A stretch of DNA of 64,000 bases from Enterobacter phage fGh-Ecl02: sequence record ON212266.1; one strand, written 5' to 3'. Below, one piece after another: positions 27,769-63,015 of this stretch. How positions within the stretch are numbered: position 1 is the stretch's first letter; every line of letters starts with the position of its first letter. The translations under genes were made by a program, and so were the position numbers. The notes under the pieces are model-generated. The model did not search any database and had not been told where the DNA came from. It saw nothing but the letters and a program-made list of their open reading frames with translations.

Positions 27769-27821
27769 CAATAACAGGGTGAGAGGTATTATTGCCCCGT
27801 CTATTAATCGAGGAAATCACA
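27769..27821 (+). repeat. Repeated leader cassette A (TTCAATAAC..GGTGAGAGGTATTATTGCCCCGTCTA)
   Basis: About 30 nt nearly identical to 28029-28082. Confidence 0.55.
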
Positions 27822-28022
27822 ATGAGCCTGAAAGAAGATTCTGTAAACACCACAGTCGCCAACTCCACCTTCCGTGAGTGGCACGACGTATTGTGTAAAG
27901 TCGCGAAAAGCCAGGGTGGTTCAGCCGCCGACGCCGACGCCTGGCGTGATGATTACGAAGCGGGCAAGACCCCGCGTCAGTCTTGGGAAGATGAATGGGG
28001 TTGGGAAGAACAAGAAGGATAA
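27822..28022 (+). CDS. Hypothetical acidic small protein (67 aa)
   Basis: ORF with SD GAGGA. Preceded by repeated cassette copy A (27769-27821). Confidence 0.4.
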   Translation: MSLKEDSVNTTVANSTFREWHDVLCKVAKSQGGSAADADAWRDDYEAGKTPRQSWEDEWGWEEQEG

Positions 28023-28028
28023 CAGTTT

Positions 28029-28082
28029 TCAATAACGGGGTGAGAGGTATTATTGCCCCGTCTACTATCCGAGGGTTGTATC
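28029..28082 (+). repeat. Repeated leader cassette B
   Basis: Same 30-nt core as copy A, 260 nt downstream. Confidence 0.55.
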
Positions 28083-28307
28083 ATGTACCTGAAAAAGACT
28101 GTGAAGAAGCCGAAAGGCGAAGTGATCGAAGTGTGCCTTATTGAGGCTTATGTTGACTCCTGGAATAACGAGCAGCGCTACTTCATGGTCAACACATTGG
28201 TGTATGTGCCAGCCTCTCACCTGAACCGTGATTTCATCACAACCGAGAACATCGTCCGCTGGGAGATTGCAACGCAGTCCGATATCGACGAACACAACAT
28301 TCTTTGA
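28083..28307 (+). CDS. Hypothetical small protein (75 aa)
   Basis: ORF preceded by repeated cassette copy B (28029-28082). Confidence 0.4.
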   Translation: MYLKKTVKKPKGEVIEVCLIEAYVDSWNNEQRYFMVNTLVYVPASHLNRDFITTENIVRWEIATQSDIDEHNIL

Positions 28308-28324
28308 AAGGAAGGATCTATATC

Positions 28325-28768
28325 ATGTCAAAAGAGAAATACATTTTCATCAGTCCTGCCACGAAGGAGTTCTTCATCTCTGACGTGAAAGACCGTGTTG
28401 AGAAGTTCCGCTACATGCGCAGCTATGGTCTGGCGTCTGGTGAGATCGATTACCAGTCCCTGGATAATGATCGCCAGGATCTGATTGATGACGGCTGGCG
28501 TTTGGTCCCATCCCCTCAGTATATCCATATCAAGCTGTACTACATGAAGGACAGCGGGAAGTATTATTCTGAAGGTGAACTCGTCCTCAATCGTGGAGAG
28601 GCTGAAGCTGAACCTGCTAAGTCCTGGATGGACACTATGGATAAAATCCGCTATCTGCTCGACTCAGGCAATTTGCCCGGTTTGGTTAAAGGTGCCCGGT
28701 ACGAGGTCTTCGTGACCGGAGAAGGGCATCCAGGTGGTTATCCACAACTGTTCCGCATTAACAACTGA
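28325..28768 (+). CDS. Hypothetical protein (148 aa)
   Basis: ORF with SD AAGGAAGGA and the TATATCATG start context. Confidence 0.5.
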   Translation: MSKEKYIFISPATKEFFISDVKDRVEKFRYMRSYGLASGEIDYQSLDNDRQDLIDDGWRLVPSPQYIHIKLYYMKDSGKYYSEGELVLNRGEAEAEPAKSWMDTMDKIRYLLDSGNLPGLVKGARYEVFVTGEGHPGGYPQLFRINN

Positions 28769-28776
28769 GGTCAAAC

Positions 28777-29013
28777 ATGATTATCAAAAAGATCGGCGCA
28801 AGTCCTCTCACTGGTACTATATTCCAGGGCAGGTTGAACACCAAAACCAGCATGTGGGTTGGTGAGAAGACCGACGTGACAGATGACTGCGTGGCGGCCA
28901 CGGCTGAACACTTGCGTCACATCAAGAAAGACTATTGCTTCCCAACAACGGATGGTAAGTTTCTGGTGCTGAGCGCCGAGGTTCACGACACCCTTCCTGA
29001 TCGCTTCAAATAA
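28777..29013 (+). CDS. Hypothetical protein (78 aa)
   Basis: ORF with SD TGAGGT, spacing 7. Confidence 0.45.
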   Translation: MIIKKIGASPLTGTIFQGRLNTKTSMWVGEKTDVTDDCVAATAEHLRHIKKDYCFPTTDGKFLVLSAEVHDTLPDRFK

Positions 29014-29015
29014 AT

Positions 29016-29116
29016 TTTAAATTTATTCAATAAAACGGGGTTTACTTCTTCAATAAACCCCGTATACTTCATTCCATAAGCAGCACAACACTGACTTGAA
29101 ATGAAGGAAATATATC
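29016..29116 (+). repeat. Early-promoter-like intergenic cassette, copy 1 (homologous to 62916-63015)
   Basis: TTCAATAAA + hairpin + GTTTACttcttcaata..(17 nt)..TATACTtcattccataagcag + acttgaa + AGGA..TATATCATG. Confidence 0.6.
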
Positions 29117-29446
29117 ATGACTTTTAAAGGCTTTGTAGCATTCGACGCAACCAAAACCAACGTGCTGAGCAACCCGCAGCTGGAAACCATCTCTGAAATG
29201 CGCCAGTGGGTGATGGGGATCACTGGCCATCAAACCAGAAAGGATCTTGAAGCGGAGTTCTATATCGAACCTGCTGAAGTCTTCTTCAATCGCCCTGAAG
29301 ATGAACCGTTCATCCGTCAAGACTTGGATGACAATGATATCACTCTCGCGGTCTTCTCTGAAGCAAAAGCGGCTATGATCGTGGACGGCCTGTGTGATGA
29401 GTCCTTCACATACGATGAATACTGCGATCAGTGTCAGGATCTGTGA
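29117..29446 (+). CDS. Hypothetical acidic protein (109 aa)
   Basis: ORF downstream of the early-promoter-like cassette at 29016-29116. Confidence 0.5.
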   Translation: MTFKGFVAFDATKTNVLSNPQLETISEMRQWVMGITGHQTRKDLEAEFYIEPAEVFFNRPEDEPFIRQDLDDNDITLAVFSEAKAAMIVDGLCDESFTYDEYCDQCQDL

Positions 29447-29515
29447 TTTGTTCTAAACCTTTGAACAGGGTATGTTAACCGCATACCCTATCCCCTACAA
29501 ATAGAGGACTTTACC

Positions 29516-29860
29516 ATGGCAGCAGACACCAAACTGAACAAATCCGTGGAGATCCCCCACATCGTCAAATTCGAAAAGCCGAGTGAGCGCAAGCCACGCA
29601 AAACGCGCCGCCTGGTCACCAAGCTGGATCTTCTGAAACAGAAGTTCGGCGACCACAGCGTGTTCACTCGCATTCGCAATGCAATAAAGGAAGGGCGAAC
29701 TGAGCTGGAGCTATATCGACCGAACGGTTCGACACGCGCATATCGGACCACTGACGGCTTACTGGAACTGATCCGCCTGAGCGGGATGACGATCGAACCT
29801 CGTTCGTCAGGCACTCCTCTGTGCTCCCTGTACGTAATCGGCAATCTTGGGGCGCTGTGA
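29516..29860 (+). CDS. Hypothetical basic protein (114 aa)
   Basis: ORF with SD AGAGGA. Confidence 0.5.
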   Translation: MAADTKLNKSVEIPHIVKFEKPSERKPRKTRRLVTKLDLLKQKFGDHSVFTRIRNAIKEGRTELELYRPNGSTRAYRTTDGLLELIRLSGMTIEPRSSGTPLCSLYVIGNLGAL

Positions 29861-29864
29861 TTCT

Positions 29865-30287
29865 ATGAAGAAGTATATCGTTCTCATTACGGGTTCCCGC
29901 TCAATCACCGAGCGGGATAAGGTATTCGCCAAGCTGGACGAACTCCTCGATCCTCATGAAGTCTATACGTTGATCGAGGGTGAGGCCACGGGTGTCGACA
30001 CGATTTGCCGTGATTGGGCTGAAATCAATTATGTTCATATCACTCCCATGCCGATCCCTCCGAGCTATTATGAAAAGTATGGGAAAGGGATGGGCAACAA
30101 ACGCAATCAGGACATGTTAGACAAGGCATTGGATCTCGTCAGGCAGACCAAGCTGGAAGTGTATCCGATTGCGATGTGGGATGGTTCGTCCACTGGCACC
30201 CTGGACATGATCAACCGTTGCAAGAAAGCTGGCCTCCCTGTGGATATCACTCTAATGGGTAAGCCGAAGACCAAGCGCCTTTTGTAA
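29865..30287 (+). CDS. DUF2493-type SLOG (DprA/LOG-like Rossmann) protein
   Basis: IVLITGSRS...DEL...LIEGEATGVDTICRDWAE...GNKRNQDML matches the phage DUF2493 signature (VTGSR..D..GgArGADxxAxxWA..RNxxM). Confidence 0.55.
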   Translation: MKKYIVLITGSRSITERDKVFAKLDELLDPHEVYTLIEGEATGVDTICRDWAEINYVHITPMPIPPSYYEKYGKGMGNKRNQDMLDKALDLVRQTKLEVYPIAMWDGSSTGTLDMINRCKKAGLPVDITLMGKPKTKRLL

Positions 30288-30326
30288 CATATCATAAATA
30301 ATTTGAGCACACAGCGGAGATACATC

Positions 30327-30497
30327 ATGTTTGTCGTCATCAATCTGTTCTGTTACATCTTCACGGCGTACTTCTTGGGCGCGGTAGGGATCGAGACCTA
30401 CAATGACCTGAAGGATGGGGAATACGCCAACCGAATGGTTTATGTCAAGAAGTTTGTTCGTAAGTTCTGGTCCAACTTCGTTTACAAACTACCATGA
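30327..30497 (+). CDS. Small membrane protein (56 aa)
   Basis: Hydrophobic N-terminus FVVINLFCYIFTAYFLGAV. SD GGAGA. Confidence 0.4.
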   Translation: MFVVINLFCYIFTAYFLGAVGIETYNDLKDGEYANRMVYVKKFVRKFWSNFVYKLP

Positions 30498-30498
30498 T

Positions 30499-30530
30499 CC
30501 CTAAATACCCCCATCATCCATGGGGGTATT
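30499..30530 (+). promoter_or_regulatory. Late-promoter-like box plus perfect 10-bp leader hairpin
   Basis: CCTAAATACC then ATACCCCCAT-catcc-ATGGGGGTAT. Confidence 0.45.
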
Positions 30531-30535
30531 TTCTT

Positions 30536-31264
30536 ATGAACGCACAGATCTATGACGCCCTATCGCAGGGCAACGCCTTTACCAATCCTCTCCCGTCCCT
30601 CAGCAGCGCCTCAAAGGGGTTAATCACCAGTGGTAAGGCGACTACAGCGTCACTGGCTAACACCGGAAATACGCAGATTCAGGAAGCGCTGACGGCAGGT
30701 GGGTTGACTACAGCCAAACTCAACGAATCTACAGCAATGTTCAACTCAGCCAACGACAGCATCACTGCTTTGAACAACTATGGCGACCAGTCAGTGAACG
30801 AGGCATATTCCCGCATCGGTACATCTGTGTCATATAAGTCCGCCCTGAAGTCTATAGGTAGAGAACCGAACAACTGTGATCTGATCAATAATGCATTTGG
30901 GGTTATTCAGAACCTCGGCAAACAGTGGATCAACACCATGCAAAGTGTTCTCACAACTATCACAAACAAGATGAATGAGCTGGCTGAGTTGGTAGCTCAG
31001 GGTGTCAGTGCTGGTCTTGATGCTATTCGGGCACTGGCTGCTGAAGTTACTCAGGCCATCGACACTGCTGTCGCATCAGTAGCCTCTATTGCTCAAGACA
31101 TCACGAACGGTATTGCAGCAGAGTTAGCCCATATCCAAGACATGGTTGGTAAGTGTCTTAACTTCTCTTTCGCCAACGTGATCTCAGAGTGGGCGAAAGA
31201 TATCTGCGCCGGAGGTGTCATCAACAGCATCGGTTCCGATAATCTGAAGAACGCGCTGAAGTAA
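30536..31264 (+). CDS. Ala/Ser/Thr-rich hypothetical protein (242 aa), probably late-expressed
   Basis: Preceded by CCTAAATACC and a perfect 10-bp leader hairpin (30505-30530). Confidence 0.5.
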   Translation: MNAQIYDALSQGNAFTNPLPSLSSASKGLITSGKATTASLANTGNTQIQEALTAGGLTTAKLNESTAMFNSANDSITALNNYGDQSVNEAYSRIGTSVSYKSALKSIGREPNNCDLINNAFGVIQNLGKQWINTMQSVLTTITNKMNELAELVAQGVSAGLDAIRALAAEVTQAIDTAVASVASIAQDITNGIAAELAHIQDMVGKCLNFSFANVISEWAKDICAGGVINSIGSDNLKNALK

Positions 31265-31672
31265 TCAGTGCTCCCGCGCCGGAAGAACTCCCACTGGTTC
31301 GATGCCATCCAACAGCAGGGAGTTCACACCCACATTACTCAGTCTGATCAAGATCGTTCCCCCTGGGTTAACTTCAAAGATACTCATCCCATTTCCAACC
31401 GCGTCGTTGTTAACGAACACACCCTGAGTTGCGATTCGTACTGGTTTATCTGAGTCATTCATGATCTTGAACGTCACGATTATATCTGATGTTGTATCCA
31501 GTCGCCCAACCATGTGTTGCTTCAGCTTGGCATGGAATGATGGGTTAAAGGTGATAATGATGCTGTTGTTCTGAGAGTAATAAATACTTGCTGATAGGTA
31601 TGGAATCTTCCCTTCATCGCCATGCCGCAGGAGAGGAATTGTGGTCTTCCAGTATGGCTTGAGGGTGCTCAT
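31265..31672 (-). CDS. Hypothetical protein (135 aa) on the opposite strand. Weak resemblance to the dUTPase/dCTP-deaminase beta-barrel fold.
   Basis: Minus-strand ATG at 31670-31672. IIVTFKIMNDSDKPVRIATQGVFV loosely resembles dUTPase motifs III-IV (V.L.N.s..p..I..GdRIAQL). Stop abuts the stop of the 30536-31264 gene. Confidence 0.35.
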   Translation of the reverse strand: MSTLKPYWKTTIPLLRHGDEGKIPYLSASIYYSQNNSIIITFNPSFHAKLKQHMVGRLDTTSDIIVTFKIMNDSDKPVRIATQGVFVNNDAVGNGMSIFEVNPGGTILIRLSNVGVNSLLLDGIEPVGVLPAREH

Positions 31673-31943
31673 GTTCTCATCAAAGCAACCTAAAGGTACG
31701 AGCTTCTGGAAGGGCTGGAACTCTTGCACGATGATGTCCAGCATACCCTTGTTACAAGTGGGAACGCTGGCCGACAACGTCACAGGTACAGTGCGCACTT
31801 CTGGGTTCCAGAGTTCGGAAACAGAAATTATTGGCGTGACAAAGATGCGACAGCTCGTAAACAAGAGCATCGAGCATGCCAACAACAATCTACTGATCCC
31901 GCGCATCAGGGTCACAAAATATCTCCACAGCAAAGGTGCTATT

Positions 31944-32444
31944 ATGTCCAACGTACAATTCAAGAACGAAAACCCTAATTTCGCGGCGTCCGATAAGTGG
32001 CGTCTGACTATCGGAGACCTTGTACTCCTAACCCGTAACATCCACGACTTCAGTATACCAGGAGTGTACTCCGAAGGCATCGATGGTCCGTCTCCTGGTG
32101 ACGTACTGGTTTCTATACCTTCAGAGCGTTTAACCTATGATCCCGTCGTATTTACTTTCGTTATAGACGAGGACTGGAAATCATGGTTACAGATCCACCA
32201 ATGGATTACCAGCAACGTCGGCAAGGATTTGCCTGTCAGCAAGGACATTACCATTGAATTGCTGGATAACCTCAACCGACCGATTGGCCTCACTCTCGTG
32301 CTGGAGGAAGCCCGCCCGACTGCTTTGGACAACGTACTGGTGGACGTAGACGCGGCTGTACCTCAGCTAGTGACGACAGTGACCTTCAAGTTCCAACAGC
32401 TGGTTCCACTATCTGTTGGGAAGGCGATTGATTCTAATCCATGA
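31944..32444 (+). CDS. Hypothetical protein (166 aa)
   Basis: SD AAAGGTG. The longer table ORF from 31641 is rejected because its N-terminal part mirrors the minus-strand gene. Confidence 0.45.
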   Translation: MSNVQFKNENPNFAASDKWRLTIGDLVLLTRNIHDFSIPGVYSEGIDGPSPGDVLVSIPSERLTYDPVVFTFVIDEDWKSWLQIHQWITSNVGKDLPVSKDITIELLDNLNRPIGLTLVLEEARPTALDNVLVDVDAAVPQLVTTVTFKFQQLVPLSVGKAIDSNP

Positions 32445-32486
32445 AATGCGGTATAATTCTATGACATTGACAAGCTGGGATATTTT

Positions 32487-32939
32487 ATGAAAGAACAACT
32501 ACAGACAATGGCCACCGAGGACATCATGAACGAACTGGAGCCACTGATCACAGTGGACCCAGAAGACATGAACCTTGACCAGATCTCACTGAAAATTGGG
32601 CGCTCTTGGATGGCTGTACAGCGGCATTATCTGCGCGAGGGACGTTATCTTGAATTTCTCAACGGGCGCTTCCGCCAAATCGATCTCTATCTGCGCCGCT
32701 ACTATGCAGGGGAGTTACCCCCTAACATCTACGCAGATCGCCCCCTGAAGGTTCGCCCCCTGAAGTCTGACCTAGATACATGGGTCAAAGCAGACGATGA
32801 CTATGTGGAGTTGTCTGTTCTGTTACAAGAACAAAAAGCAAAAGTCAAGTTCATAGAGACTTGTTTGGATCGCCTGAACAAACTGGGATACGAAGTGAAA
32901 AATGCTATTGAATGGAGAAAGTATCTCGATGGTGTATAA
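32487..32939 (+). CDS. Putative recombination mediator UvsY-like protein
   Basis: Size, predicted helicity and LYLRRYYAGE / DRLNKLGYEVKNAIEW resemble T4 UvsY (LDYYSGRGDG..IKSRGFAIKHIQDM). Lies next to uvsW, as in T4-type genomes. Confidence 0.45.
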   Translation: MKEQLQTMATEDIMNELEPLITVDPEDMNLDQISLKIGRSWMAVQRHYLREGRYLEFLNGRFRQIDLYLRRYYAGELPPNIYADRPLKVRPLKSDLDTWVKADDDYVELSVLLQEQKAKVKFIETCLDRLNKLGYEVKNAIEWRKYLDGV

Positions 32940-32954
32940 CAAGGATCACACATA

Positions 32955-33701
32955 ATGGCATCTCTCCAGGATCTACGCAAGCTGAATGACTTCGAAAACC
33001 GTCATTACACATTCCAGCAGTACGAACTTCCTTACAAGGAACTGGAGTGTGTGACGACGGAAAACGGTCGTCATTATGTATCGCCGACTGGTGTCAAGCT
33101 GACATCCGTCACGACTATGCTGGGGCGTACTGGTGATCATGAATGGCTTGAGGCTTGGAGGAAGAAGCTAGGTGCAGAGGCCGCCGACCTTGAGACCATG
33201 CGTTGCGCTGACCGAGGGGAGAAGCTGCACCTTGCGTGCGAACTGTATTTGAAGAACCGCCCAATGAAAGAAGTGTTGGAAGCGGCTGGCGAATACATGT
33301 TCATGTTCAAGCAGCTGTTCCCTTACCTGAACAAGATGACAAAGATCTATGCTCAGGAGATCCCATTATATAGCGAGGTGCTTGGTCTTGCAGGTCGAGT
33401 AGACCTTATCGGGATTTATGAGGGTAAACCTGCTATCATCGACTTCAAGACATCGAACACCATGAAGACGCGGGGCATGATCGAGGATTACAGTATCCAG
33501 CTGTGCTTATATTCGGTCATGTTCCAGCAGATGTTCGGCGTCAAGATCACCCGCCTCATCAACGTGATTGCCAACGAGTCTTCCCCTCTACCAACCGTAA
33601 TTGAGTTCAACCGTGATGACATTCTGACAAAGATGTTTGAGCGTGTTCGTCTGTATCATCGCATGGATAAAGAACAAAACGGAGTCTGGCCAGATCACTA
33701 A
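32955..33701 (+). CDS. PD-(D/E)xK nuclease (RecB/Cas4/YqaJ-like)
   Basis: GRVDLIGI..AIIDFKTS (D..ExK) followed by QLCLYSVMF (the QxxxY motif of RecB-family nucleases). Confidence 0.6.
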   Translation: MASLQDLRKLNDFENRHYTFQQYELPYKELECVTTENGRHYVSPTGVKLTSVTTMLGRTGDHEWLEAWRKKLGAEAADLETMRCADRGEKLHLACELYLKNRPMKEVLEAAGEYMFMFKQLFPYLNKMTKIYAQEIPLYSEVLGLAGRVDLIGIYEGKPAIIDFKTSNTMKTRGMIEDYSIQLCLYSVMFQQMFGVKITRLINVIANESSPLPTVIEFNRDDILTKMFERVRLYHRMDKEQNGVWPDH

Positions 33702-33706
33702 ATACC
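33696..33706 (+). promoter_or_regulatory. Late-promoter-like box upstream of uvsW
   Basis: CACTAAATACC, 25 nt before the ATG. Confidence 0.4.
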
Positions 33707-33729
33707 CCATAATTCTTGGGAGATTTTGT

Positions 33730-53374: not shown

Positions 53375-53424
53375 TTCTATCTGACGCGCGGCCAGGCTCT
53401 GCAATCAGGGCATGGCAAAAGAGA

Positions 53425-56569: not shown

Positions 56570-57361
56570 ATGGGAATGAACTTCGTGGACAGAGGGGAGA
56601 ATGTCGTCAAATATTTCACAGACGAAGATAACGAGCGTGTCATCAGCATCCTGCGTGATTGGATCCCTGCTCGTAAGAAGGCTCTGGCTGAAGGCACCAG
56701 GCTTCCAAAGATCCCCAACTATGTTGCTCTACAGGTCCAGCGCATCATCACCAAGATGAGCACCCGCTACAACTATCGCGACTATCCCTTCCGTGAAGAC
56801 ATGGTCTCTGAAGCAATAGTCAACATATTGCGCTACCTCCACACATTTGACGTCGAACACATTGGAAAGAAAGGGAAGATCAACTTCTTCTCTTGGGTGA
56901 CCATGTGTGCTGATCGATCATTCGCTCGTAAACTGAATATCGAAGAAGAACACACGTACATCAAATTGCGCTCATTTGAAGAGGCGGGTGGGTTCGCAGG
57001 CCTGGCAGACGATCCCGACTTCAAACAAGAGATCTTTGTTGACGCGACAGGGATTGGCATGGACTTCCGTGAACGTATCGGTAACTTTGAGAACAAAAAG
57101 GACGCTCAAAGGCAGAAGGAACGAGAGAAGGTGGAGGCAGCTCGTCTCGCAGAATCGAATAAAAAGATTGCGAAAGGCATACTTCAATACATGGCGCAGG
57201 CTAAGAATACGGTAACAGCGCAGGCCGAAGACAATTCAGATCAGGACTTCGGCAAAACCCAATTCAATCTGGAAGATGATATCTGTGCGATGGAACCAGA
57301 TTGGGAAGCCCTCAAACAAAGATTAGAAGAACGGGAGAAAAAGAACAATGGCGATTGCTAA
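56570..57361 (+). CDS. 55: Late sigma factor gp55 homologue with a C-terminal extension
   Basis: RYNYRDYPFREDMVSEAIVNILRYLHTFDVEH..FFSWVTMCADRSFARKL parallels T4 gp55 [52 protein letters not shown]. 263 aa versus 185 in T4. Confidence 0.7.
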   Translation: MGMNFVDRGENVVKYFTDEDNERVISILRDWIPARKKALAEGTRLPKIPNYVALQVQRIITKMSTRYNYRDYPFREDMVSEAIVNILRYLHTFDVEHIGKKGKINFFSWVTMCADRSFARKLNIEEEHTYIKLRSFEEAGGFAGLADDPDFKQEIFVDATGIGMDFRERIGNFENKKDAQRQKEREKVEAARLAESNKKIAKGILQYMAQAKNTVTAQAEDNSDQDFGKTQFNLEDDICAMEPDWEALKQRLEEREKKNNGDC

Positions 57362-58463
57362 AATTGGCGATCTGCATATCGGGAGCCGTAATGGTTCTCG
57401 ATACGTTCGCGACTTCATCAAGAACTATCTCATCAATTATTTCATTCCTGAACTTGCCGACTCTGATATCAAAGAGGTCTGGCAGTTCGGTGATATGTTT
57501 GATGTCCGCAAATTCATGTACGGTCGTGACAAAGACTGGCTGAAGGATGAACTCACTCCTGCGCTGAAAGCCGCTGGTATCAAGTGGAACGGCATCGTGG
57601 GCAACCATGACATCACCCTGGAAGAGTCCAACCGCATCAACTGGCCGTCCTATCTGAATGAACTCGATCCTGATGTCTACTGCTATTACAGCGAGCCGAC
57701 CGAGGTGATGATCGAGGGTGTCAAGACTCTGTTGTTGCCTTGGATCAACAAGGAGAACTATGATGCGTCTATTAAAGCGATACAAGATACAGACGCCGAG
57801 TACTGTTTTGCGCATCTGGAGCTGGCGGGGTTCAAAATGTACCAGTCTTCTACTTGTGATCACGGTCAGATAGACGTTGCGCTGCTTTCCAAGTTTACCA
57901 GGGTCGACACGGGCCATTTCCATACCCGTTCGATGGAAGGTAACATTCAATATATTGGGACTCCGTATCACCTGAACTGGGAAGACTACAAAGACGGCAC
58001 CAATCGTGGCTTCTATGTGGACGACATGCGCGGCGGTGAGGTCTTTATCCCGAACGCCGAGAATCAGACGCTGTTCCGCTATGTGGAATATGATTACACC
58101 AAGTTGTCCTCCGATGAAGAAGGCAATTGGATAGACCCGGAATGGTTGAACACAGGCTTGGGTATTGAAGGGCAAATCGTTAAGGTTATTGTACAGAACC
58201 GCGACAATGCTAAGCATTATGAAAAGTTCTGTGATGCCATGAAGCGCTGCAAGTGCATTGACTACAACTTCATCGACCGGACGATTACTGTTGCTGCCGA
58301 GAAGGTTGAGGTCACCGAAGAGATGGTGGCAACCGATGCGGTGGAAGTCCTAAAGAAGGATATCCGCGCCGGGAACAACATCCAGCGCCCTGAAAACGTC
58401 TGCAAGCTGGCAGAGCACTTCTACAACGCTGCCCAACAACGCCTGAATACACTGGATGCATAA
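57348..58463 (+). CDS. 47: Recombination nuclease gp47 (Mre11/SbcD-like)
   Basis: KIGDLHIG..QFGDMFD..GIVGNHD..GHFH match T4 gp47 NLGDWHLG..QYGDIFD..TIVGNHD..GHFH. Confidence 0.85.
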   Translation: MAIAKIGDLHIGSRNGSRYVRDFIKNYLINYFIPELADSDIKEVWQFGDMFDVRKFMYGRDKDWLKDELTPALKAAGIKWNGIVGNHDITLEESNRINWPSYLNELDPDVYCYYSEPTEVMIEGVKTLLLPWINKENYDASIKAIQDTDAEYCFAHLELAGFKMYQSSTCDHGQIDVALLSKFTRVDTGHFHTRSMEGNIQYIGTPYHLNWEDYKDGTNRGFYVDDMRGGEVFIPNAENQTLFRYVEYDYTKLSSDEEGNWIDPEWLNTGLGIEGQIVKVIVQNRDNAKHYEKFCDAMKRCKCIDYNFIDRTITVAAEKVEVTEEMVATDAVEVLKKDIRAGNNIQRPENVCKLAEHFYNAAQQRLNTLDA

Positions 58464-58464
58464 C

Positions 58465-60801
58465 ATGACTCAAAGTACAGATATCCTGGCCAAATTTGGC
58501 AATCTTTTGAAGGAAGCTGACGCCCCGGTAGAGGTGGAAGTCCCATTTGAAGTGCGTGATAACGTTACGCACAAACTAACTTTCCGCAAAGGCCGCGCTA
58601 AAAACTTCCGTTCCATCGGCAATCAGTTCATGGAGATTGATTATCAGCGCAACCCAGCCACCCTTGTCACGTCTGATGACAACGGCGCGGGTAAATCCAC
58701 GATGTTGGTATGGCTGCTGTTCTTCGTACTGTACAACACCACGTACAGTAAGAAGGAGAAGAAGGCAGGCCTGGTTAACTCACAAAGCCGCAAGGAATGT
58801 GTGGGTGAGGTAGAGTTTGCCTGTCGTGGTAGTGAATGGAAAGTTCGCCGGGGCATCAAGCCCGACTTTGTTGAAGTCTACCAGATGGTAGACGGTAAGT
58901 GGTTGCAGATAGATAACGAAGCAGCCAAGGCCGACATGAACAAGTACATCGTGAACCTCATCGGTGTAGACCAGAAGATGTTTGAGAACTCTCTGGTGCT
59001 GGGTAAAGAGAAGTTCATTCCGTTTACGGAGATGTACACTGCCGACCGTCGCGCCATGGTGGAGACAATTTGGGACTTGGGCTTCTTCAGCCTGATGAAC
59101 GAAGATGTCAAGGCCGCCATCAAAAAGGCAAATGCAACTCTGGACTCCATATCTAACGAATGCGCACTGAAGGTTATTGACCACACCAACAAGAAGACGC
59201 AGCTTCAGCAGATCGAACAATCCAACGCCCTGATCCAACAGCAGTCGGCCGATATCCTTGTACAGCAACAGGAAGCCCTGAATTCCCTAGATGCTGACAT
59301 CGCTTCCCAGAACGAAGAGCGCACCCGCCTCACTGCGGTTGAGTTCGAAGCCACCCAGGAAATGAAGACGGTGGAAAGCCGCCTGCATGATGAATCAATG
59401 GTGGAGATCGAGGCTATCAAGAAAGACTTTGATGCCAAGATCCAGGCGGTGAAGAATGCCGCTCAGGAAAAGGCCGATGATTATGAGCGTATCGAAGTGT
59501 CTATTGCGGAGCATGATCTTCAGGTCTTGCGTGACCGTGCCTTTACAGTGGCCGAAAGCAAGAACACTCTGATCACCGAGCGCAACACAAACCTGGACGC
59601 CCTGAACGCTGCTATCCAGCGCCGCCAGCAGGGTGAGAACTTCCGCATCAAGTTCCAGACCGAAATGGATGGACATCAGTCGGCCATCAAGCGCTTCCAC
59701 GACATGGGGACTTGTCCAACATGCACCCAACTGGTGTCCGACGATACCAAGGCACGTATTGAAAGCGAGTACAATCCTCAGATTCAGGAACTGCAATCGA
59801 AGTTAGATCAACTGGACAAAGTTACCGCCGATATCAATGTCCTGATCGATGATCACAAGGCTCAGGACGATAAGTTGGTTGCTGACATTGCTGTGTTGGA
59901 TGCTGAATTGGATGCAATGCGCAAGCAGGCCGACGAAATCGTTGACAACATCAAGCAGCTGCGCCGTGATATTCAGGGGTTCCATGACGCCGCCACGATT
60001 GAATGCAACTCCCTGAACCGTGAATGCCAACAGAAGATCCTTGACATCCGCAAGGCGCTGAATGTTCGTTTTGAAGATATCACTGCGTCGCTGCAACAGA
60101 CGCGAGAGAATGCCGTCAGCGGGATTAAAGCCGTCGATGATAAGATCGCCGAGCTGAAAGCTCGTCGTGCTCCTCTCGTGGCGTCTATTGCCGATCTGGA
60201 GCGCAAACTGGCTGTACAACCAACACCCACCACCGACCTAGAGAACTCTATCACTGTGTTGGAGGGTGAACTAGAGGATCTATACCAGCGCCGCGAGGAT
60301 GCCGACCAGGAACTCCAGGACTTACAGCACCTGCTGTTCTTCTTGAAAGATGACCAGACCAAGGCGCGTATCATCGCCCTGTATCTGCCATTCCTCAATA
60401 GCAAGATCAACGAGTATCTTGAAGCCCTCAACATGTTCTTGGACATCGTTGTTGACGATACCTTTGAGATCACCATGAGCGCAGCAGGTCGCAAAGGACA
60501 GAGTATATTCTCCCTGTCTACTGGCCAGCGCAGTCGTCTGAACCTGGCGGTGACATTAGCTCTGCGCGATGTAGCTAACCTCAAGGCGTCTGTACAATGT
60601 AACCTGTTCGTTCTGGACGAGATCCTTGAGAACATGAGCGAGCGCGGGGTGCAGGAATCGGTTGAGATGTTGAAGCATAAGTTCGGCGGGAACAACCTGT
60701 TTGTTATTAGCCAGCGCGAACAGGAGTTCCAAGAATACTTCCAACACAACATTCGCTACGGCCTGCGAAACGGCCTGACTGAAGTTATCAAGAAGGATTG
60801 A
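58465..60801 (+). CDS. 46: Recombination ATPase gp46 (Rad50/SbcC-like)
   Basis: N-terminal Walker A DNGAGKSTMLVWLLFF, long coiled coil with a CPTC zinc hook, C-terminal LFVLDEILE (Walker B / D-loop). The table ORF starts at 58456, overlapping the gp47 stop. Confidence 0.85.
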   Translation: MTQSTDILAKFGNLLKEADAPVEVEVPFEVRDNVTHKLTFRKGRAKNFRSIGNQFMEIDYQRNPATLVTSDDNGAGKSTMLVWLLFFVLYNTTYSKKEKKAGLVNSQSRKECVGEVEFACRGSEWKVRRGIKPDFVEVYQMVDGKWLQIDNEAAKADMNKYIVNLIGVDQKMFENSLVLGKEKFIPFTEMYTADRRAMVETIWDLGFFSLMNEDVKAAIKKANATLDSISNECALKVIDHTNKKTQLQQIEQSNALIQQQSADILVQQQEALNSLDADIASQNEERTRLTAVEFEATQEMKTVESRLHDESMVEIEAIKKDFDAKIQAVKNAAQEKADDYERIEVSIAEHDLQVLRDRAFTVAESKNTLITERNTNLDALNAAIQRRQQGENFRIKFQTEMDGHQSAIKRFHDMGTCPTCTQLVSDDTKARIESEYNPQIQELQSKLDQLDKVTADINVLIDDHKAQDDKLVADIAVLDAELDAMRKQADEIVDNIKQLRRDIQGFHDAATIECNSLNRECQQKILDIRKALNVRFEDITASLQQTRENAVSGIKAVDDKIAELKARRAPLVASIADLERKLAVQPTPTTDLENSITVLEGELEDLYQRREDADQELQDLQHLLFFLKDDQTKARIIALYLPFLNSKINEYLEALNMFLDIVVDDTFEITMSAAGRKGQSIFSLSTGQRSRLNLAVTLALRDVANLKASVQCNLFVLDEILENMSERGVQESVEMLKHKFGGNNLFVISQREQEFQEYFQHNIRYGLRNGLTEVIKKD

Positions 60802-60803
60802 TC

Positions 60804-60968
60804 ATGAACTACGAACAAATTAAACTCGCAATACTGATCTTTGCATGCATCATTGACATCGTTGCATTTTCTCGTGAAGTCGAAAGGAAAAACTACCTGA
60901 AATCACTGGGATATCTCGGGTTCTCTGTCTGGTTCTGTTATCTACTTGCAGGTCAAATCCTGAAATGA
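60804..60968 (+). CDS. Small membrane protein (54 aa), absent from the ORF table because it is under 60 aa
   Basis: ATG 3 nt after the gp46 stop. Two hydrophobic segments. Stop overlaps the next start (ATGA). Confidence 0.35.
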   Translation: MNYEQIKLAILIFACIIDIVAFSREVERKNYLKSLGYLGFSVWFCYLLAGQILK

Positions 60969-61294
60969 AAGTCGTACACTTCAAGAAGGAGCCATATGAC
61001 GTCTACATTGGTCGGCCTGGTAAATGGGGGAACCCGTTTGAGGTCAAAGACCATGGACGAGGCGTCTGTATCGAACTGTTTGAGGACGTCCTGTATGTGC
61101 GCCTGATTGAAGGGGATATCACTGAGGATGAACTCCTTGATCTTGACGGGAAGGTATTGGGGTGCTGGTGTAAGCCGCGCCCCTGCCACGGAGATGTTTA
61201 CGTCAAAGTCGTCGGGCGTATTAAACTATTCCGCAAGCTGGGTAAATCCTTTACCGAACATCTGAGACAAACGTATGTCAGAAAACAAAGATGA
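60965..61294 (+). CDS. DUF4326-family protein
   Basis: YIGRPGKWGNPF...GCWCKPRPCHGDV is the characteristic signature of that phage-associated family. Confidence 0.55.
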   Translation: MKVVHFKKEPYDVYIGRPGKWGNPFEVKDHGRGVCIELFEDVLYVRLIEGDITEDELLDLDGKVLGCWCKPRPCHGDVYVKVVGRIKLFRKLGKSFTEHLRQTYVRKQR

Positions 61295-61559
61295 AATTCA
61301 GGAATCCTGTGACATTGCTGTGGAGATATGGAATCGCAGGAATCCTCATTACCAAGTAACCGTCACTCCGAATCGTTATCTTGAGCAGGGCGGCCTGATT
61401 GTGGTTGATGCTGTACTCGCTTTCAACAAGTACCAAGATATGCAGATCCTGGACGGCAACTTTACCGTCGCGACCAAGACGGCATGGGATGACCCTCTAC
61501 AGTTCGTCTATGGCTGGCTGGAGTGTATCGAGGAATCCTACCACCTCATCTACGAATGA
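61275..61559 (+). CDS. Hypothetical protein (94 aa)
   Basis: ORF overlapping the previous gene by 20 nt. Terminator hairpin downstream (61566-61598). Confidence 0.4.
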   Translation: MSENKDEIQESCDIAVEIWNRRNPHYQVTVTPNRYLEQGGLIVVDAVLAFNKYQDMQILDGNFTVATKTAWDDPLQFVYGWLECIEESYHLIYE

Positions 61560-61565
61560 GGCTGA

Positions 61566-61598
61566 AGGGCACTAAATACCACGTGCCCTTTATCTTTT
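61566..61598 (+). promoter_or_regulatory. Terminator hairpin whose loop carries the late-promoter-like box
   Basis: AAGGGCAC-taaataccac-GTGCCCTT followed by TATCTTTT. Box ACTAAATACC in the loop. Confidence 0.4.
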
Positions 61599-61656
61599 AA
61601 CCCCTGTCAGGAGGCTCAAGCGAGCTGCAAGTCGACAAAACATAAGGAACGCCATC

Positions 61657-62271
61657 ATGACGATGACAACGTTGAAGGCCATGGCCTTGTCCGTGACCTT
61701 TACCATTGCCAGCGGGAATGTGCACGCTTCCCAAAGTACCACCCAATGTGATTATAATTTCTCCGAGCAACAACTTAATACGTTGGCAACCGCCTATCAC
61801 GTAGGCAAGACACAAGACCTTGGTTACACCCTGGCTGCCATATCCTGGCGAGAGAGCCGCGCTGGTGAAGATGTAGTGTCAATGCGATACGATCTCAAGG
61901 CGGCCAACATGGGAGCCTTTCAGAACAAGGTGAAGACAGTTGGTGATCGCGAAGGTTGTAAGAATCGCAAGTGCTATGCCAATGTCGCCATAAAGTTGCT
62001 GACCGACCAAGAATATGCCGCGCAAGCCGCCCTCGATGAGATGCAGTTCTGGCTGACCTATCACAATCAGAATATCCGCAAATCCCTCTCCTCTTACAAT
62101 GCTGGCTTCGCCCGTAATCCCGCATCGAACGCTTATGCTGCCGACGTCGTGAAGAAAGCTAAATATCTTCAGAAATGTGTGTCTTTCGAAGGCCGGACCA
62201 TCTCCGAGGTAGATCCTCAGGTGATCGCCATGAACAAGCACACAATAGAGAAACTGAAGAGGACAAGATAA
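61657..62271 (+). CDS. Secreted protein with a possible lytic-transglycosylase (SLT-like) motif
   Basis: Signal peptide MTMTTLKAMALSVTFTIASGNVHA. AISWRESRAG resembles the SLT catalytic ES motif. Late-promoter-like box lies in the upstream terminator loop. Confidence 0.4.
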   Translation: MTMTTLKAMALSVTFTIASGNVHASQSTTQCDYNFSEQQLNTLATAYHVGKTQDLGYTLAAISWRESRAGEDVVSMRYDLKAANMGAFQNKVKTVGDREGCKNRKCYANVAIKLLTDQEYAAQAALDEMQFWLTYHNQNIRKSLSSYNAGFARNPASNAYAADVVKKAKYLQKCVSFEGRTISEVDPQVIAMNKHTIEKLKRTR

Positions 62272-62909
62272 TGAACATCACTCCATCTCAGGCCGGATAT
62301 GAACATATCTTGGTCTTCATTGCTCTACAGGGTGCGAAGGAAGGCATCATCGTATCCGAGTACTCAGGCACGGTTCGCCTTGCCGATTATGTCGCACCAG
62401 AGGCATTTATCAAGAAGTGTATTGACGCATGGTGCCTCTATGCCCTCGGCACGTATCCTGCTCCTCCTGATGGCGAGCTGTTGTTTACTGTGCCGACTCC
62501 GGCTGCTGGCGATACGGACGCGATCTTTGCCGATATGCTGGCCAAGGGGTATCTGGTTTATGACATCACCCACGATGTCTACTCCTTTACTTCGCTGAAC
62601 ACCGTGTTTGGATTCACCATCACATCTGAAGCCAACATCCCTGACTGGGGTATCTTGGCATGGGGTGTTGACGGCCTGGGTGCAACCTACGCATCGTCTG
62701 ACGTCGGTGCAGTTCTGATTGATGAGGGTGTCACCATGGAGCAGTACCTTGCCCAGTTCCCTCAGCACAATATCACAGGCAGCGACATCATTTTGGTCCA
62801 GCCTGGCGCTATCGCTCTCCCCCGTTTGGTGGGTGGATGGAATCCTCGGCTGAAGGATATCATCGCAGGTATTCGATCCCACATTCCGGTTGTGAATCCG
62901 ACGCCGTAA
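62271..62909 (+). CDS. Hypothetical protein (212 aa)
   Basis: Start overlaps the previous stop (TAATG). The table ORF starts at 62175. Confidence 0.45.
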   Translation: MNITPSQAGYEHILVFIALQGAKEGIIVSEYSGTVRLADYVAPEAFIKKCIDAWCLYALGTYPAPPDGELLFTVPTPAAGDTDAIFADMLAKGYLVYDITHDVYSFTSLNTVFGFTITSEANIPDWGILAWGVDGLGATYASSDVGAVLIDEGVTMEQYLAQFPQHNITGSDIILVQPGAIALPRLVGGWNPRLKDIIAGIRSHIPVVNPTP

Positions 62910-62915
62910 AAATAA

Positions 62916-63015
62916 TTCAATAAAAGGGGCTTTGCCCCTTTACTTCTTCAATATCCTTCCCTATACTTCATTCCATAAGCAGTACGACACCAACTTGAAT
63001 AGCAGGAACTATATC
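62916..63015 (+). repeat. Early-promoter-like intergenic cassette, copy 2
   Basis: Near-identical blocks tacttcttcaata and tatacttcattccataagcag(t/c)ac and the same TTTACT-N17-TATACT geometry as copy 1. Confidence 0.6.

Follow-up and report, generated by a model that had tools for sequence, protein, structure and literature searches.

What are the short repeats in the intergenic gaps of this phage genome, and how do they relate to the turnover of its small genes? The window, the whole stretch of 64,000 nt analysed here (Enterobacter phage fGh-Ecl02, ON212266.1), comes from an Agtrevirus-like (ViI-like) coliphage of the Ackermannviridae, with 95-97% identity to phages A221, PC3 and AV101. A sequence-only reading had likened the repeats to the PeSLs of T4-type phages. 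We consider it probable that they are composite portable regulatory cassettes working like the PeSL/PmSL cassettes of those phages.

Repeated cassettes in the non-structural half

The cassettes are short, near-identical and intergenic, and they were found in the non-structural half of the genome. Each occupies one intergenic gap and combines a GC-rich hairpin, a promoter and a standard translation-initiation leader, with the following predicted elements (all + strand):

C1, 27759-27821, +: upstream of a 66-aa gene; box TTCAATAA 27767-27774, N12, -10-like TATTAT 27787-27792 inside a degenerate hairpin; SD 27810-27815, ATG 27822
C2, 28023-28082, +: repeat of C1; box 28028-28035, hairpin 28035-28061 (ACGGGGTGA / TTGCCCCGT), TATTAT 28048-28053 in its loop; ATG 28083
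Leader-only minimal copy, 28303-28324, +: TTTGAAAGGAAGGATCTATATC before ATG 28325, without promoter or hairpin
C3, 29014-29116, +: AT-rich tract with box 29026-29033; hairpin 29035-29063; -35 GTTTAC 29040-29045 in 5′ arm, second box 29049-29056 in loop, -10 TATACT 29063-29068; 48-nt leader with TTGAAA 29096, SD 29103-29109, TATATC 29111-29116
C4, 36619-36699, +: degenerate box ATCAATCT 36619-36626, N12, TGn-TATAAT 36639-36644; hairpin 36649-36667, ATTTGAA 36669-36675; ATG 36700 (clamp-loader gene)
C5, 39500-39567, +: box-like TTCACTAA 39512-39519, N11, TATAAT 39531-39536 in loop of terminator hairpin 39522-39546, then T-tract; ATG 39568 (5-hmdU DNA kinase gene)
C6, 40792-40905, +: TTTACTTC 40800-40807, box 40812-40819, N12, TATATT 40832-40837; hairpin 40855-40875, ATTTGAA 40878-40884, SD, ACTACATC, ATG 40906
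C7, 44330-44434, +: boxes 44345-44358, hairpin 44362-44377, box-like TTCAATTA 44382-44389, N11 (8 nt + TGG), TATAAT 44401-44406 after TGG (TGGTATAAT 44398-44406); ATG 44435
C8, 47530-47652, +: terminator hairpin 47536-47555, -35 GTTTAC 47572-47577, -10 TATTAT 47596-47601, box 47601-47608, TTGAAA 47633, TATATC 47647-47652, ATG 47653
C9, 47893-47951, +: box TTCTATAA 47893-47900, N12, hairpin 47905-47927 with TATGAT 47913-47918 in loop; ATTTGAA 47929-47935, SD, TATACC, ATG 47952
C10, 48459-48510, +: repeat of C9; hairpin 48465-48486 with TATGAT 48472-48477; ATTTGAA 48488-48494, TATATC 48505-48510, ATG 48511
C11, 49812-49890, +: inverted box TTATTGAA 49822-49829, -35 TTTACT 49834-49839, N17, -10 TATCAT 49857-49862, SD, ATG 49891
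C12, 51809-51865, +: box ATCAATAA 51809-51816 overlapping stop codon, N12, hairpin 51821-51844 with TATCAT 51829-51834 in loop; ATTTGAG 51849-51855, TATATC 51860-51865, ATG 51866
C13, 52971-53095, +: upstream of HU/TF1-like gene; box 53016-53023 within palindrome TTATTCAATAA, N11, TAAACT 53035-53040, ATG 53096; without hairpin
C14, 62910-63015, +: repeat of C3; box 62916-62923, hairpin 62923-62941, -35 TTTACT 62939-62944, TTCAATAT 62947-62954, -10 TATACT 62962-62967; leader with TTGAAT 62995, SD, TATATC 63010-63015, ATG 63016

Both cassette pairs singled out by the sequence-only reading (27769/28029 and 29016/62916) hold up. C1 and C2 are 81% identical over 68 nt (27766-27833 vs 28027-28094), including a 38-nt core at 97%; C3 and C14 share 85% over 62 nt (29060-29121 vs 62959-63020) and a second block at 78% (29019-29050 vs 62909-62940). 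C9 and C10 are 84% identical (47906-47955 vs 48465-48514). Comparing the 30 intergenic regions with each other, as that reading had proposed, gave 13 pairs of at least 24 bits, against a mean of 0.16 (maximum 2) in 100 shuffles; the best pairs score 68, 50 and 46 bits, the shuffle maximum being 28. The motifs, too, are far commoner than expected: the TTCAATAA box occurs 11 times (2.07 expected; 11 reached in 0/100 shuffles), the start context TATATCATG seven times (0.41 expected), in agreement with the recurrent TATATC-ATG context noted earlier, and TTTACTTC seven times (1.59 expected). Generic sigma-70 and terminator consensus scans showed no enrichment over shuffles (32 vs 23.5 and 22 vs 20.1).

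Predicted promoter types, hairpins and leader

Two promoter types are predicted. The early type, (G/C)TTTAC-N17-TAT(A/T/C)(C/A)T, was found as TTTAC-N16-18-TATNNT at four sites, all intergenic and on the + strand (0.95 expected). The GTTTAC-N17-TATACT promoter attributed to both C3 and C14, with its -35 in a hairpin stem, is exact in C3, where the 5′ arm contains the -35, but C14 reads TTTACT-N17-TATACT, with a -35 that reaches into the 3′ arm.

The second type, found in most cassettes, has a -30 box, (T/A)TC(A/T)ATAA-N11-13-TAnnnT, at six to eight sites, its -10 often in a hairpin loop. Strict TTCAATAA-N11-13-TAnnnT occurs five times (0.08 expected) and the relaxed box with this spacing 11 times (0.95 expected). 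Intergenic + strand boxes start at eight positions (27767, 28028, 29026, 29049, 40812, 47601, 53016 and 62916). The reported recurrence stands, with some coordinates displaced: by 10 nt for 29016, 47591 and 53006, and by 1-4 nt for 27770, 28027 and 40816. The reported box-N12-TATnnT geometry is present at 27767, 28028 and 40812 and extends to 53016 (N11, TAAACT).

The six to eight box/-10 sites are positionally conserved across Agtrevirus, Kuttervirus (SH19), Limestonevirus (RC2014) and Taipeivirus (UPM2146). In these four genera box and -10 are fixed, while the spacer keeps its length and varies in sequence; at C6 this spacer is 11-12 nt long and occurs in at least five different sequences. 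The box at the C4 site of SH19 and UPM2146 is retained at N12-13 from the -10, and at the C1 site UPM2146 keeps TTCAATAA-N12-TATTAT without any hairpin. C2 is identical or nearly so in SH19 and RC2014. At C12 the -10 has the same spacing, as TATTAT in SH19 and TATAAT in UPM2146, and differing sequences maintain the stem in Ag3, RC2014, SH19 and UPM2146.

Cassette hairpins have fold energies between -12 and -19 kcal/mol (z between -3.6 and -5.5), and different sequences maintain their stems (e.g., GGGCGGCTT/AAGCTGCCC, GGGCGACTT/AGGTCGCCC and AGGGCGGTT/AACCGCCTT). All five hairpins previously noted with ATTTGAA are present (36649-36675, 40855-40884, 47905-47935, 48465-48494 and 51821-51855, the last with ATTTGAG), at -16 to -19 kcal/mol and z -3.6 to -5.1. 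In this genome the C1 hairpin is weak, at -7.3 kcal/mol (z -0.3), but relatives have it intact. The AG3 paper predicted orthologous hairpins to be rho-independent terminators, and GC-rich hairpins would terminate or attenuate upstream transcripts; several have weak U-tracts, such as CUAUUUGAAA, and these may attenuate or stabilise RNA instead of terminating. Where the -10 sits in the loop, the transcript would start in the 3′ arm without the 5′ arm, so the hairpin would stop read-through RNA only. This logic is not general, since in C6 the predicted start precedes the hairpin.

The shared leader consists of TTGAA, 5-9 nt, GGAA/GAGA, (C)TATATC and ATG. Across the genes, 19/74 start codons are directly preceded by ATC.

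Gene exchange at the cassettes

We inspected ten related genomes for indel junctions and gene content at the cassettes, a comparison that the earlier reading had also suggested, and small genes are gained, lost and swapped exactly there. Four cargo genes illustrate this:

27822-28022, +: 66 aa, PHROG 519, between C1 and C2; missing in both AV101 and RC2014
29117-29446, +: 109 aa, downstream of C3; shared by the window, AV101 and P46FS4 alone
47952-48458, +: 168 aa, between C9 and C10; matches RNA polymerase ADP-ribosylase (PHROG 832) weakly
63016-63351, +: 111 aa, PHROG 9866, downstream of C14

AV101 has a single chimeric C1/C2 cassette in place of the 66-aa gene. The C9/C10 locus exists in three states: the ART-like gene (window, AV101 and SH19), denV (P46FS4 and RC2014) or empty (A221, PC3, YX22, RPN242 and Ag3). 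One C9-left/C10-right chimera replaces the gene in A221, PC3 and YX22, switching in ATTTGAAA, and in RPN242, switching inside the hairpin. The empty state thus has two different switch points, although the TCT/CCC difference behind them could reflect two substitutions or gene conversion.

Direct repeats formed by the 3′ end of the cassette bracket two insertions: an extra 88-aa gene between C3 and the 109-aa gene in P46FS4 (24 nt, at 29096-29119) and an extra 91-aa gene at C14 in A221 and Ag3 (28 nt, at 62992-63019). A different 123-aa gene replaces 63016-63351 in P46FS4 and SH19. At C7, the downstream module comes in three alternatives, which part immediately past TTTCAATT (breakpoints 44388 and 44406), between box and -10, and each retains N11-TATAAT. 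The RPPK/NAMPT module carries its own box/-10 promoter with it, and the terminators in front differ by genus. Other junctions lie at 29016, 29096 and 29113 (C3), at 47565 (Ag3) and 47656 (P46FS4) in C8, and at 52978-53003 in C13, whose upstream gene varies among relatives; in Ag3 and P46FS4, homology begins at 27780, within C1. No paralogy was found among the genes downstream of repeated cassettes. Chimeric cassettes, bracketing repeats and non-paralogous downstream genes together support the modular shuffling proposed earlier.

Half of the distinct breakpoints (24/48) fall in intergenic gaps, which make up 8.2% of the region, and eight are at most 6 nt away from a start codon, positions that account for 1.8% of the region. 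Selection alone would bias indel boundaries towards intergenic DNA. Among the gaps, 11/14 with a box or early-type promoter contain breakpoints vs 4/15 of the others (Fisher p = 0.009, indicative only, as the classes were set after seeing the data). Some of the larger insertions, four or five, are seg-like homing endonucleases, a mechanism separate from cassette shuffling, and the breakpoints at 36700, 40701-40784 and ~49800 are due to them; in PC3 and YX22 the insertion point of such a gene coincides with the ATG downstream of C4, and in A221 a different upstream gene is joined to C11 at ~49800.

Proposed mechanism and known systems

From these features we infer that the cassettes act as promoters and terminators, where their transcripts start and by which pathway they recombine. 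Host RNA polymerase would use the cassette promoter, whether early-type or -30 box type. As one and the same 30-100-nt cassette precedes unrelated genes, homologous recombination between its copies, whether within a single genome or between co-infecting relatives, can delete, insert or exchange the intervening genes with expression unbroken. Candidate recombination genes, by orthologue annotation, are:

32487-32939, +: UvsY-like mediator
32955-33701, +: exonuclease
33730-35238, +: UvsW-like helicase
57348-60801, +: gp47/gp46-like recombination nuclease genes

The UvsY, UvsW and gp46/47 homologues and the exonuclease could act on short cassette homologies. Our literature search found no transcriptome paper for the Ackermannviridae, and a 2024 review is silent on promoters.

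Published PeSLs comprise a stop codon, an AT-rich tract, a GC stem-loop variably placed relative to -35/-10, an SD and an ATG (PMC2839356; PMC4122927); the anatomy and chimeric-junction logic of our cassettes match them, and the TTTAC-N16-18-TATnnT promoters resemble T4 early promoters. PeSLs, however, were described from T4-type phages, whereas the phage carrying these cassettes belongs to the Ackermannviridae and is not a strict T4-type phage; in this family no such cassettes have been reported so far. The likeness of the box to the MotA box of T4-type phages, suggested earlier, stands for geometry but not for box sequence, which differs, and both MotA and AsiA are absent from the phage. Such a MotA-like box, in a family that lacks MotA/AsiA, is a more novel lead than the PeSL-like reading itself.

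Repeated intergenic cassettes in an Ackermannviridae phage

The sequence-only reading had likened the repeats of this phage to those of T4-type phages. The label is only loosely right, as the best matches of the window and its layout of virion and replication genes indicate. A megablast search with 27000-34000 matched 272 phage records, and the best ones all belong to Ackermannviridae, subfamily Aglimvirinae; the match is 95-97% for the Escherichia phages A221, PC3/PH4 and AV101 and 91% for Shigella phage Ag3. Nearly all genes of the window are on the + strand. Virion genes (neck, terminase, sheath, tube, portal, capsid) occupy 1-26 kb, while 26-64 kb holds replication and recombination genes, including UvsY, UvsW, gp45, gp44/62, RegA, helicase, RNase H, gp55 and gp46/47, with small genes of unknown function scattered between them. 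The phage is ViI-like.

Several other features of this layout deserve mention. A 5-hmdU DNA kinase domain protein encoded at 39568-40791 (Pfam E 2.4e-83) implies hypermodified thymidine, in which case T-rich boxes and -10 elements would bear modified bases. An HU/TF1-like protein is encoded at 53096-53374 (Pfam E 6e-30). The 145-aa ORF at 43374-43811, a stretch unannotated in A221, carries a DUF3268 zinc-finger domain (Pfam E 2.7e-37), is kept in all ten relatives except RC2014 and is a possible nucleic-acid-binding candidate. For 61657-62271, the RegB label seems to lack support: the PhiSH19 orthologue is annotated as "RegB endoribonuclease family", but the one Pfam hit here, to SLT transglycosylase (E 4e-4), is below threshold, and PHROG 600 is a family of unknown function. 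Upstream of the sliding-clamp gene, a 500-nt non-coding region between divergent genes (35451-35950) contains AT-rich palindromes and several -10-like sites, and its 18-nt unit TTATTATCTTTAATAAAG is duplicated in A221, PC3 and YX22. It could serve either as an origin or as a region of divergent promoters.

Reading all intergenic regions and locating their parts exactly yielded about 14 cassettes, numbered C1-C14, each combining a hairpin, a predicted promoter and a ribosome-site leader. The repetition that had been noticed earlier is real and takes the form of three pairs:

27766-27833 and 28027-28094, cassettes C1 and C2, 81% identical
29060-29121 and 62959-63020, cassettes C3 and C14, 85% identical, with a further similar block at 29019-29050 and 62909-62940
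47906-47955 and 48465-48514, cassettes C9 and C10, 84% identical

Across 38-68 nt the copies are 81-97% identical, including positions free of consensus constraint, such as the leader and the loop flanks. We ruled out that the repeats are by-products of gene duplication, since the genes behind paired cassettes show no resemblance to one another.

Relative to dinucleotide-preserving shuffles, the individual motifs are enriched. The box TTCAATAA was found 11 times (2.07 expected); eight of these sites are intergenic, on the + strand and all between 27.7 and 63 kb, in a window of which only 8% is intergenic. The box sites listed earlier exist, with three coordinates 10 nt off and three off by 1-4 nt. 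The start-context motif TATATCATG occurs 7 times (0.41 expected), ATTTGAA 24 times (11.9 expected) and TTTACTTC 7 times (1.59 expected). A comparison of 30 intergenic regions, all against all, serving as the dot plot, returned 13 pairs of at least 24 bits, against 0.16 in shuffles, with best scores of 68, 50 and 46 bits and a shuffle maximum of 28; enrichment is thus higher than in shuffled intergenic sequence. Generic sigma-70 and terminator consensus scans gave no enrichment over shuffles, and phage-specific motifs alone were enriched. No Rfam family matched anywhere in the window, so neither the hairpins nor the leaders correspond to a known RNA element. An exact search of IMG/VR with the 16-mer TTTACTTCTTCAATAA was uninformative, its more than 120 hits being mostly unrelated AT-rich chance matches.

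All 14 cassettes span the gap from a stop codon to the next ATG and end in SD and ATG. The shared order is stop codon, A/T-rich box, GC-rich hairpin, -10-like hexamer, (C/T)ATTTGAA, SD, (C)TATATC and ATG, with two promoter types among the cassettes: an early-type promoter and a box about 30 nt upstream of the start (-30 box). Hairpin stability ranges from -12 to -19 kcal/mol (z -3.6 to -5.5), except in C1, where the hairpin of this genome is degenerate, and in C2 (-13 kcal/mol, z -1.5). The hairpin is not fixed in position relative to the promoter.

Table. Placement of the hairpin in individual cassettes
C3: 5' arm contains the -35
C14: 3' arm overlaps the -35
C2, C5, C9, C10, C12: -10 hexamer in the loop
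C8: upstream of the -35
C4, C6: downstream of the -10

With the -10 in the loop, a start 5-9 nt past it would fall in the 3' arm, and the resulting transcript would lack the hairpin; the hairpin would then halt read-through RNA only. C6 breaks this logic, its hairpin being downstream of the predicted start. In C12 the stem sequence changes among relatives and stem pairing is kept, as judged by inspection; a covariation count was dropped, as MAFFT shifted the hairpins of distant genera by one column. We also considered sequestration of the SD in read-through RNA by pairing of CUUCAUU (29066-29072) with AAUGAAG (29099-29105), and rejected it, the pairing not being kept in C14.

The leader, TTGAA...GGAA-CTATATC-ATG, keeps a fixed distance to the ATG and not to the -10; around inserted genes, it is this leader that is found in duplicate. 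In 19 of 74 genes, late ones included, ATC stands immediately before the start codon, with C at -1 in 34 and A at -3 in 46 of the 74; this is a strong initiation context throughout the genome. Since the ATC-ATG preference is genome-wide and extends to late genes, the leader is first of all a translation-initiation context. It would perhaps put unrelated cargo genes under common translational control, with the RegA homologue at 38146-38610 (Pfam E 2e-34) as candidate regulator.

Probable gene exchange at the cassettes

We aligned the window with seven close relatives as colinear chains and compared the junction sequences. The cargo genes, small genes next to or between cassettes, are the following:

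27822-28022, between C1 and C2
29117-29446, behind C3
47952-48458, between C9 and C10
63016-63351, behind C14

The cargo gene 47952-48458 is present in the window, AV101 and SH19. A221, PC3 and YX22 lack it and have a single cassette made of the left half of C9 and the right half of C10, with the switch within ATTTGAAA; in RPN242, which also lacks the gene, the switch point is inside the hairpin. In P46FS4 and RC2014 the same slot holds denV, with the same leader and even the first six coding bases (ATGACC) in common. Similarly, 27822-28022 is missing in AV101, where a single C1-left/C2-right chimera is found. Additional genes carry repeats at their edges: a 91-aa gene behind C14 in A221 and Ag3 is bracketed by a 28-nt repeat (..AGGAACTATATCATGA), and an 88-aa gene behind C3 in P46FS4 by a 24-nt repeat. 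A221, PC3, YX22 and RPN242 lack 29117-29446, the break being at 29113. At C7, three alternative downstream modules split directly after TTTCAATT, and N11-TATAAT is kept in each. The RPPK/NAMPT module, together with its box/-10 promoter, lies behind a different terminator in UPM2146.

The 168-aa product of 47952-48458 matches PHROG 832, "RNA polymerase ADP-ribosylase" (E 2.9e-14); this ART-like protein had no Pfam match and no PDB sequence match.

In a scripted tally, 24 of 48 distinct breakpoints lie in gaps that make up 8.2% of the region, and eight are no more than 6 nt away from a start codon, positions that amount to 1.8% of it. Breakpoints were found in 11 of 14 gaps with a box or early-type promoter, against 4 of 15 others (p = 0.009, with classes set post hoc). 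Taken together, the chimeric cassettes, the bracketing repeats, the tally and the unrelated downstream genes support the modular shuffling that the sequence-only reading had proposed, and the cassettes are probably composite regulatory units that act as exchange points for gene modules. In the relatives, we found no small cargo gene that had moved from one to the other of the two distant copies, C3 and C14; non-syntenic relatives were seen only for a seg-like endonuclease family and for the RPPK/NAMPT module.

It could be argued that these are ordinary regulatory signals only, with copies alike by shared consensus, indels intergenic because intragenic ones are lethal, and recombination between copies without a special role. 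ATC-ATG and A at -3 are indeed a genome-wide start context that includes late structural genes, the elements are strongly conserved across genera, as functional signals would be, and the other 24 of the 48 breakpoints lie outside intergenic gaps. However, the similarity of copies extends to consensus-free positions, loss of a flanked gene leaves an exact chimera of the left and right copies, 24-28-nt repeats bracket inserted genes, and breakpoints cluster within 6 nt of the ATG rather than throughout the gap. We therefore consider this account unlikely.

A second alternative is that homing endonuclease genes drive the differences in gene content through intergenic invasion and co-conversion of flanks, the cassettes being incidental landing places. 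The window has its own HNH/homing endonuclease gene at 26232-27758 (PHROG 3339, E 2e-127), adjoining C1/C2, and insertions of 226-309 aa in the relatives form one family of seg-like GIY-YIG/NUMOD3 homing endonucleases at different intergenic sites.

Table. Insertion sites of seg-like endonucleases, in window coordinates
36700: PC3, YX22
40701-40784: AV101, RPN242
about 49800: A221
56560: SH19

In the relatives' own coordinates, the genes lie at 10987-11667 (labelled L003), 25034-25963 on the minus strand (L004), 23217-24050 (L002) and about 34425-35147 (L129, oriented). RC2014 retains a 9-codon seg-like remnant upstream of the clamp-loader gene, and endonuclease diversity was noted in published Agtrevirus comparisons. 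The inserted seg-like modules again end in CTATATCATG. These endonucleases move by their own mechanism and explain part of the breakpoints. As a general explanation, homing is quite improbable: the small cargo (66, 88, 91, 109, 111, 123 and 168 aa, and denV) comprises no endonucleases and adjoins none, and its junctions consist of chimeric cassettes or of repeated cassette sequence, neither of which would be expected from homing.

Finally, the GGGG...CCCC hairpins might be sites of a dedicated site-specific recombinase, as in integron-like capture, instead of substrates for general homologous recombination. The stems are GC-rich and recurrent, the switch point of RPN242 is within a hairpin, and Arbiol et al. 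considered such an option for the promoter-early stem-loop cassettes (PeSLs) of T4-type phages (PMC2839356). Against this, neither an integrase nor a recombinase domain was found in the window ORFs tested, junctions are scattered over many places (box, hairpin, ATTTGAAA and SD-ATG), and the bracketing repeats are leader and not hairpin; we regard a dedicated recombinase as highly improbable. Exchange at composite cassettes is the reading that we retain.

As a separate observation, the terminator hairpin at 53424-53450, between the HU-like and helicase genes, has its loop in both orientations among close relatives (TACAATG and CATTGTA), and it seems that the whole palindrome flips.

Predicted promoters of the cassettes

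The early-type promoter, TTTAC-N16-18-TATNNT, has four sites (29041, 47573, 49834 and 62939), all intergenic and on the + strand, against 0.95 expected. They are located in C3, C8, C11 and C14, and AT-rich tracts lie at 29014-29034 and 62910-62924. The other cassettes have the putative -30 box, (T/A)TC(A/T)ATAA.

Combined with a -10, as TTCAATAA-N11-13-TAnnnT, the box occurs five times (0.08 expected), with four sites intergenic (27767, 28028, 40812 and 53016). The relaxed form, (T/A)TC(A/T)(A/C)TA(A/C), occurs 11 times (0.95 expected) and adds 39512, 47893 and 51809; by eye we added 36619 (ATCAATCT-N12-TGCTATAAT) and 44382 (TTCAATTA-N11, with TGG ahead of TATAAT). When DNA upstream of orthologous genes was compared across the homologous 40 kb of ten relatives from four genera, 5-8 box/-10 sites were at the same places in every genome. 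At C6 the box TTCAATAA and the -10, TAT(A/T)(T/A/C)T, are invariant while the 11-12-nt spacer takes the forms CTCAATCCAGCG, CTTTTTTCAACG, CTCTTTTCAACG, CTCTTTCAACG, ATCTTTTCAGCG and CTGTAATCGGGG. At C12 the -10 varies (TATCAT, TATTAT, TATAAT) and box and spacing are kept. In Taipeivirus UPM2146, the C1 site reads TTCAATAA-N12-TATTAT and has no hairpin. This conservation of box, spacing and -10 reads as the footprint of a bipartite promoter that would be independent of the hairpin.

Kutter et al. 2011 could not identify the early promoters of ViI-like phages and reported that MotA, AsiA, Alt and ModA are all missing from them. Pfam searches of 40 ORFs from the window, which covers 64 of about 155 kb, and of 7 ORFs inserted in relatives returned no MotA or AsiA domain and, as other obvious DNA-binding candidates for an activator, only the HU-like protein, the DUF3268 zinc-finger protein and RegA. 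We tentatively hypothesize that (T/A)TC(A/T)ATAA at -30 might define the pre-replicative class of promoters so far missing for ViI-like phages, and that host RNA polymerase would need a phage-encoded activator or sigma-remodelling factor unrelated to MotA/AsiA to read it; such a factor might possibly sense the hypermodified thymidines of the phage DNA. If so, Ackermannviridae evolved sigma appropriation, or an analogue, independently, and the cassettes would extend -30-box control to each newly gained gene. Among the findings, the presence of this box in a family that lacks MotA and AsiA has the best chance of representing new biology.

A competing account, which concerns the box and not the cassettes, is likewise a possibility that we hold below even chances. 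The box would be no activator site but either a weak sigma-70 -35 (nnTTCA, 16-nt spacer) with an AT-rich tract, or an operator for a phage DNA-binding protein, a repressor or timing protein such as the HU/TF1-like one. TTTTCA-16-TATTAT at 28026 is a 9/12 sigma-70 match in the consensus scan, and the sigma-70 promoters tentatively listed in the AG3 paper include three such box sites, e.g., TTttacttcttcaataactcacgTATAAT. Some box copies have another spacing to a -10 (N6-7 within the early-type promoters at 29049 and 62947), the copy at 47601 overlaps a predicted start, and those at 29026 and 62916 are upstream of the hairpin. Four box copies form the 11-nt palindrome TTATTCAATAA, and the HU-like gene itself is preceded by the best-conserved copy of TTCAATAA. 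On the other hand, the two bases that would complete the -35 vary (TT, AT, TC, TA, AA), the ATAA part is invariant although a -35 reading would put it in the spacer, and the 12 +/- 1 nt spacing to TAnnnT is fixed in four genera, as is typical of a promoter element.

A further class of boxes, (C)ACTAAATA(C/T)C, stands before virion and some other genes (1002, 6781, 13292, 17575, 23828, 30501, 33698 and 61572, + strand). CTAAATA has 10 occurrences, all on the + strand, against 4.3 expected, and several boxes of this type lie in hairpins (1006-1038, 30503-30531, 61565-61590). By sequence they look like gp55-type late promoters; the CBA120 paper stated that the late promoter of this phage family was unidentified.

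Relation to known systems

Single elements of the cassettes are partly known already, since the AG3 paper lists box sites among its promoters and places rho-independent terminators at the hairpins, without describing an organisation in cassettes. In the literature searched, we found no paper connecting PeSLs with Ackermannviridae and no Ackermannviridae transcriptome study, and a 2024 review of the family is silent on promoters and transcription.

The abstract of the 2012 "Viunalikevirus" paper by Adriaenssens et al. reportedly mentions "conserved regulatory sequences", and some of the motifs in the window may already have been described in that paper.

Until now, cassette-mediated modular shuffling had been documented for T4-type phages alone; the present results add a second family, whose members are large virulent phages in wide use for biocontrol and phage engineering. 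These results offer concrete testable junctions, such as the three-state locus at 47.9-48.5 kb (ART-like gene, denV or empty), and propose explicit early-type and -30-box motifs for a family in which, according to published work, neither early nor middle control signals had been identified. The long-open promoter question in phages lacking MotA, AsiA, Alt and ModA (Kutter et al. 2011) becomes directly testable. For engineering, the cassettes offer natural "landing pads" in Ackermannviridae phages, where payload genes would find expression signals in place, and they predict sites where engineered inserts may be lost via recombination.

Lambdoid morons and integron cassettes are similar in that single genes move with their own expression signals into intergenic sites. 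However, the flanking signals of morons are not the vehicle of mobility, and integrons require an integrase and attC sites, neither of which was seen in the window.

The sequence-only reading had also called the box MotA-box-like. Its geometry does equal that of T4 middle promoters (Hinton 2010, PMC2988021), in which an 8-9-bp box 12 +/- 1 bp upstream of TAnnnT takes the place of the -35; TGn is present at some window sites, and the sites precede replication and accessory genes, the clamp-loader gene among them. The sequence is another matter: the MotA box, (a/t)(a/t)(a/t)TGCTT(t/c)A, is unrelated to the window box, and T4 middle promoters need MotA and AsiA, neither of which has a domain in the window ORFs tested. 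The -30 box sites are therefore not T4 middle promoters but may work similarly. Similar, too, are the promoter-middle stem-loop cassettes (PmSLs) of vibriophage nt-1 (Comeau et al. 2014), which combine a stem-loop, a box at about -30 and a -10 (TATTAT) at middle-promoter distance; nt-1, however, has a TGCTT Mot box, whereas the window has (T/A)TC(A/T)ATAA in a phage family without MotA/AsiA.

PeSLs have been described in RB49/phi1, T4/PST and KVP40/nt-1 (Arbiol et al. 2010, PMC2839356; Comeau et al. 2014, PMC4122927). As in the window, where the sigma-70-like promoter is predicted for four cassettes, they consist of an intergenic AT-rich tract, a GC stem-loop in variable position that may overlap the -35 or -10, a sigma-70-like promoter, an SD and an ATG, and they occur in many copies, mostly among small accessory genes. 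The consensus of PST/T4 PeSLs, TTTACW-N17-TAYWAT (PMC4122927), is essentially the early-type promoter of the window. In both systems, one chimeric cassette replaces flanked ORFans in relatives (RB49 ORFan192 corresponds to one chimeric PeSL in phi1; PMC2839356), and the crossovers map either to the stretch from the -10 to the ATG or to the loop. The differences are that the family here is Ackermannviridae, that a -35/-10 promoter is present in only 4 of about 14 cassettes, most having the -30 box, and that a major site of homology is the leader they share (TTGAA...CTATATC-ATG). Experiments on PeSLs have demonstrated promoter activity, terminator activity and mini-circles; for the window cassettes, promoters and terminators are predicted. 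In both structure and comparative behaviour, the cassettes of this phage agree with PeSLs in all that computation can test, with the early-type promoter confined to four of them.
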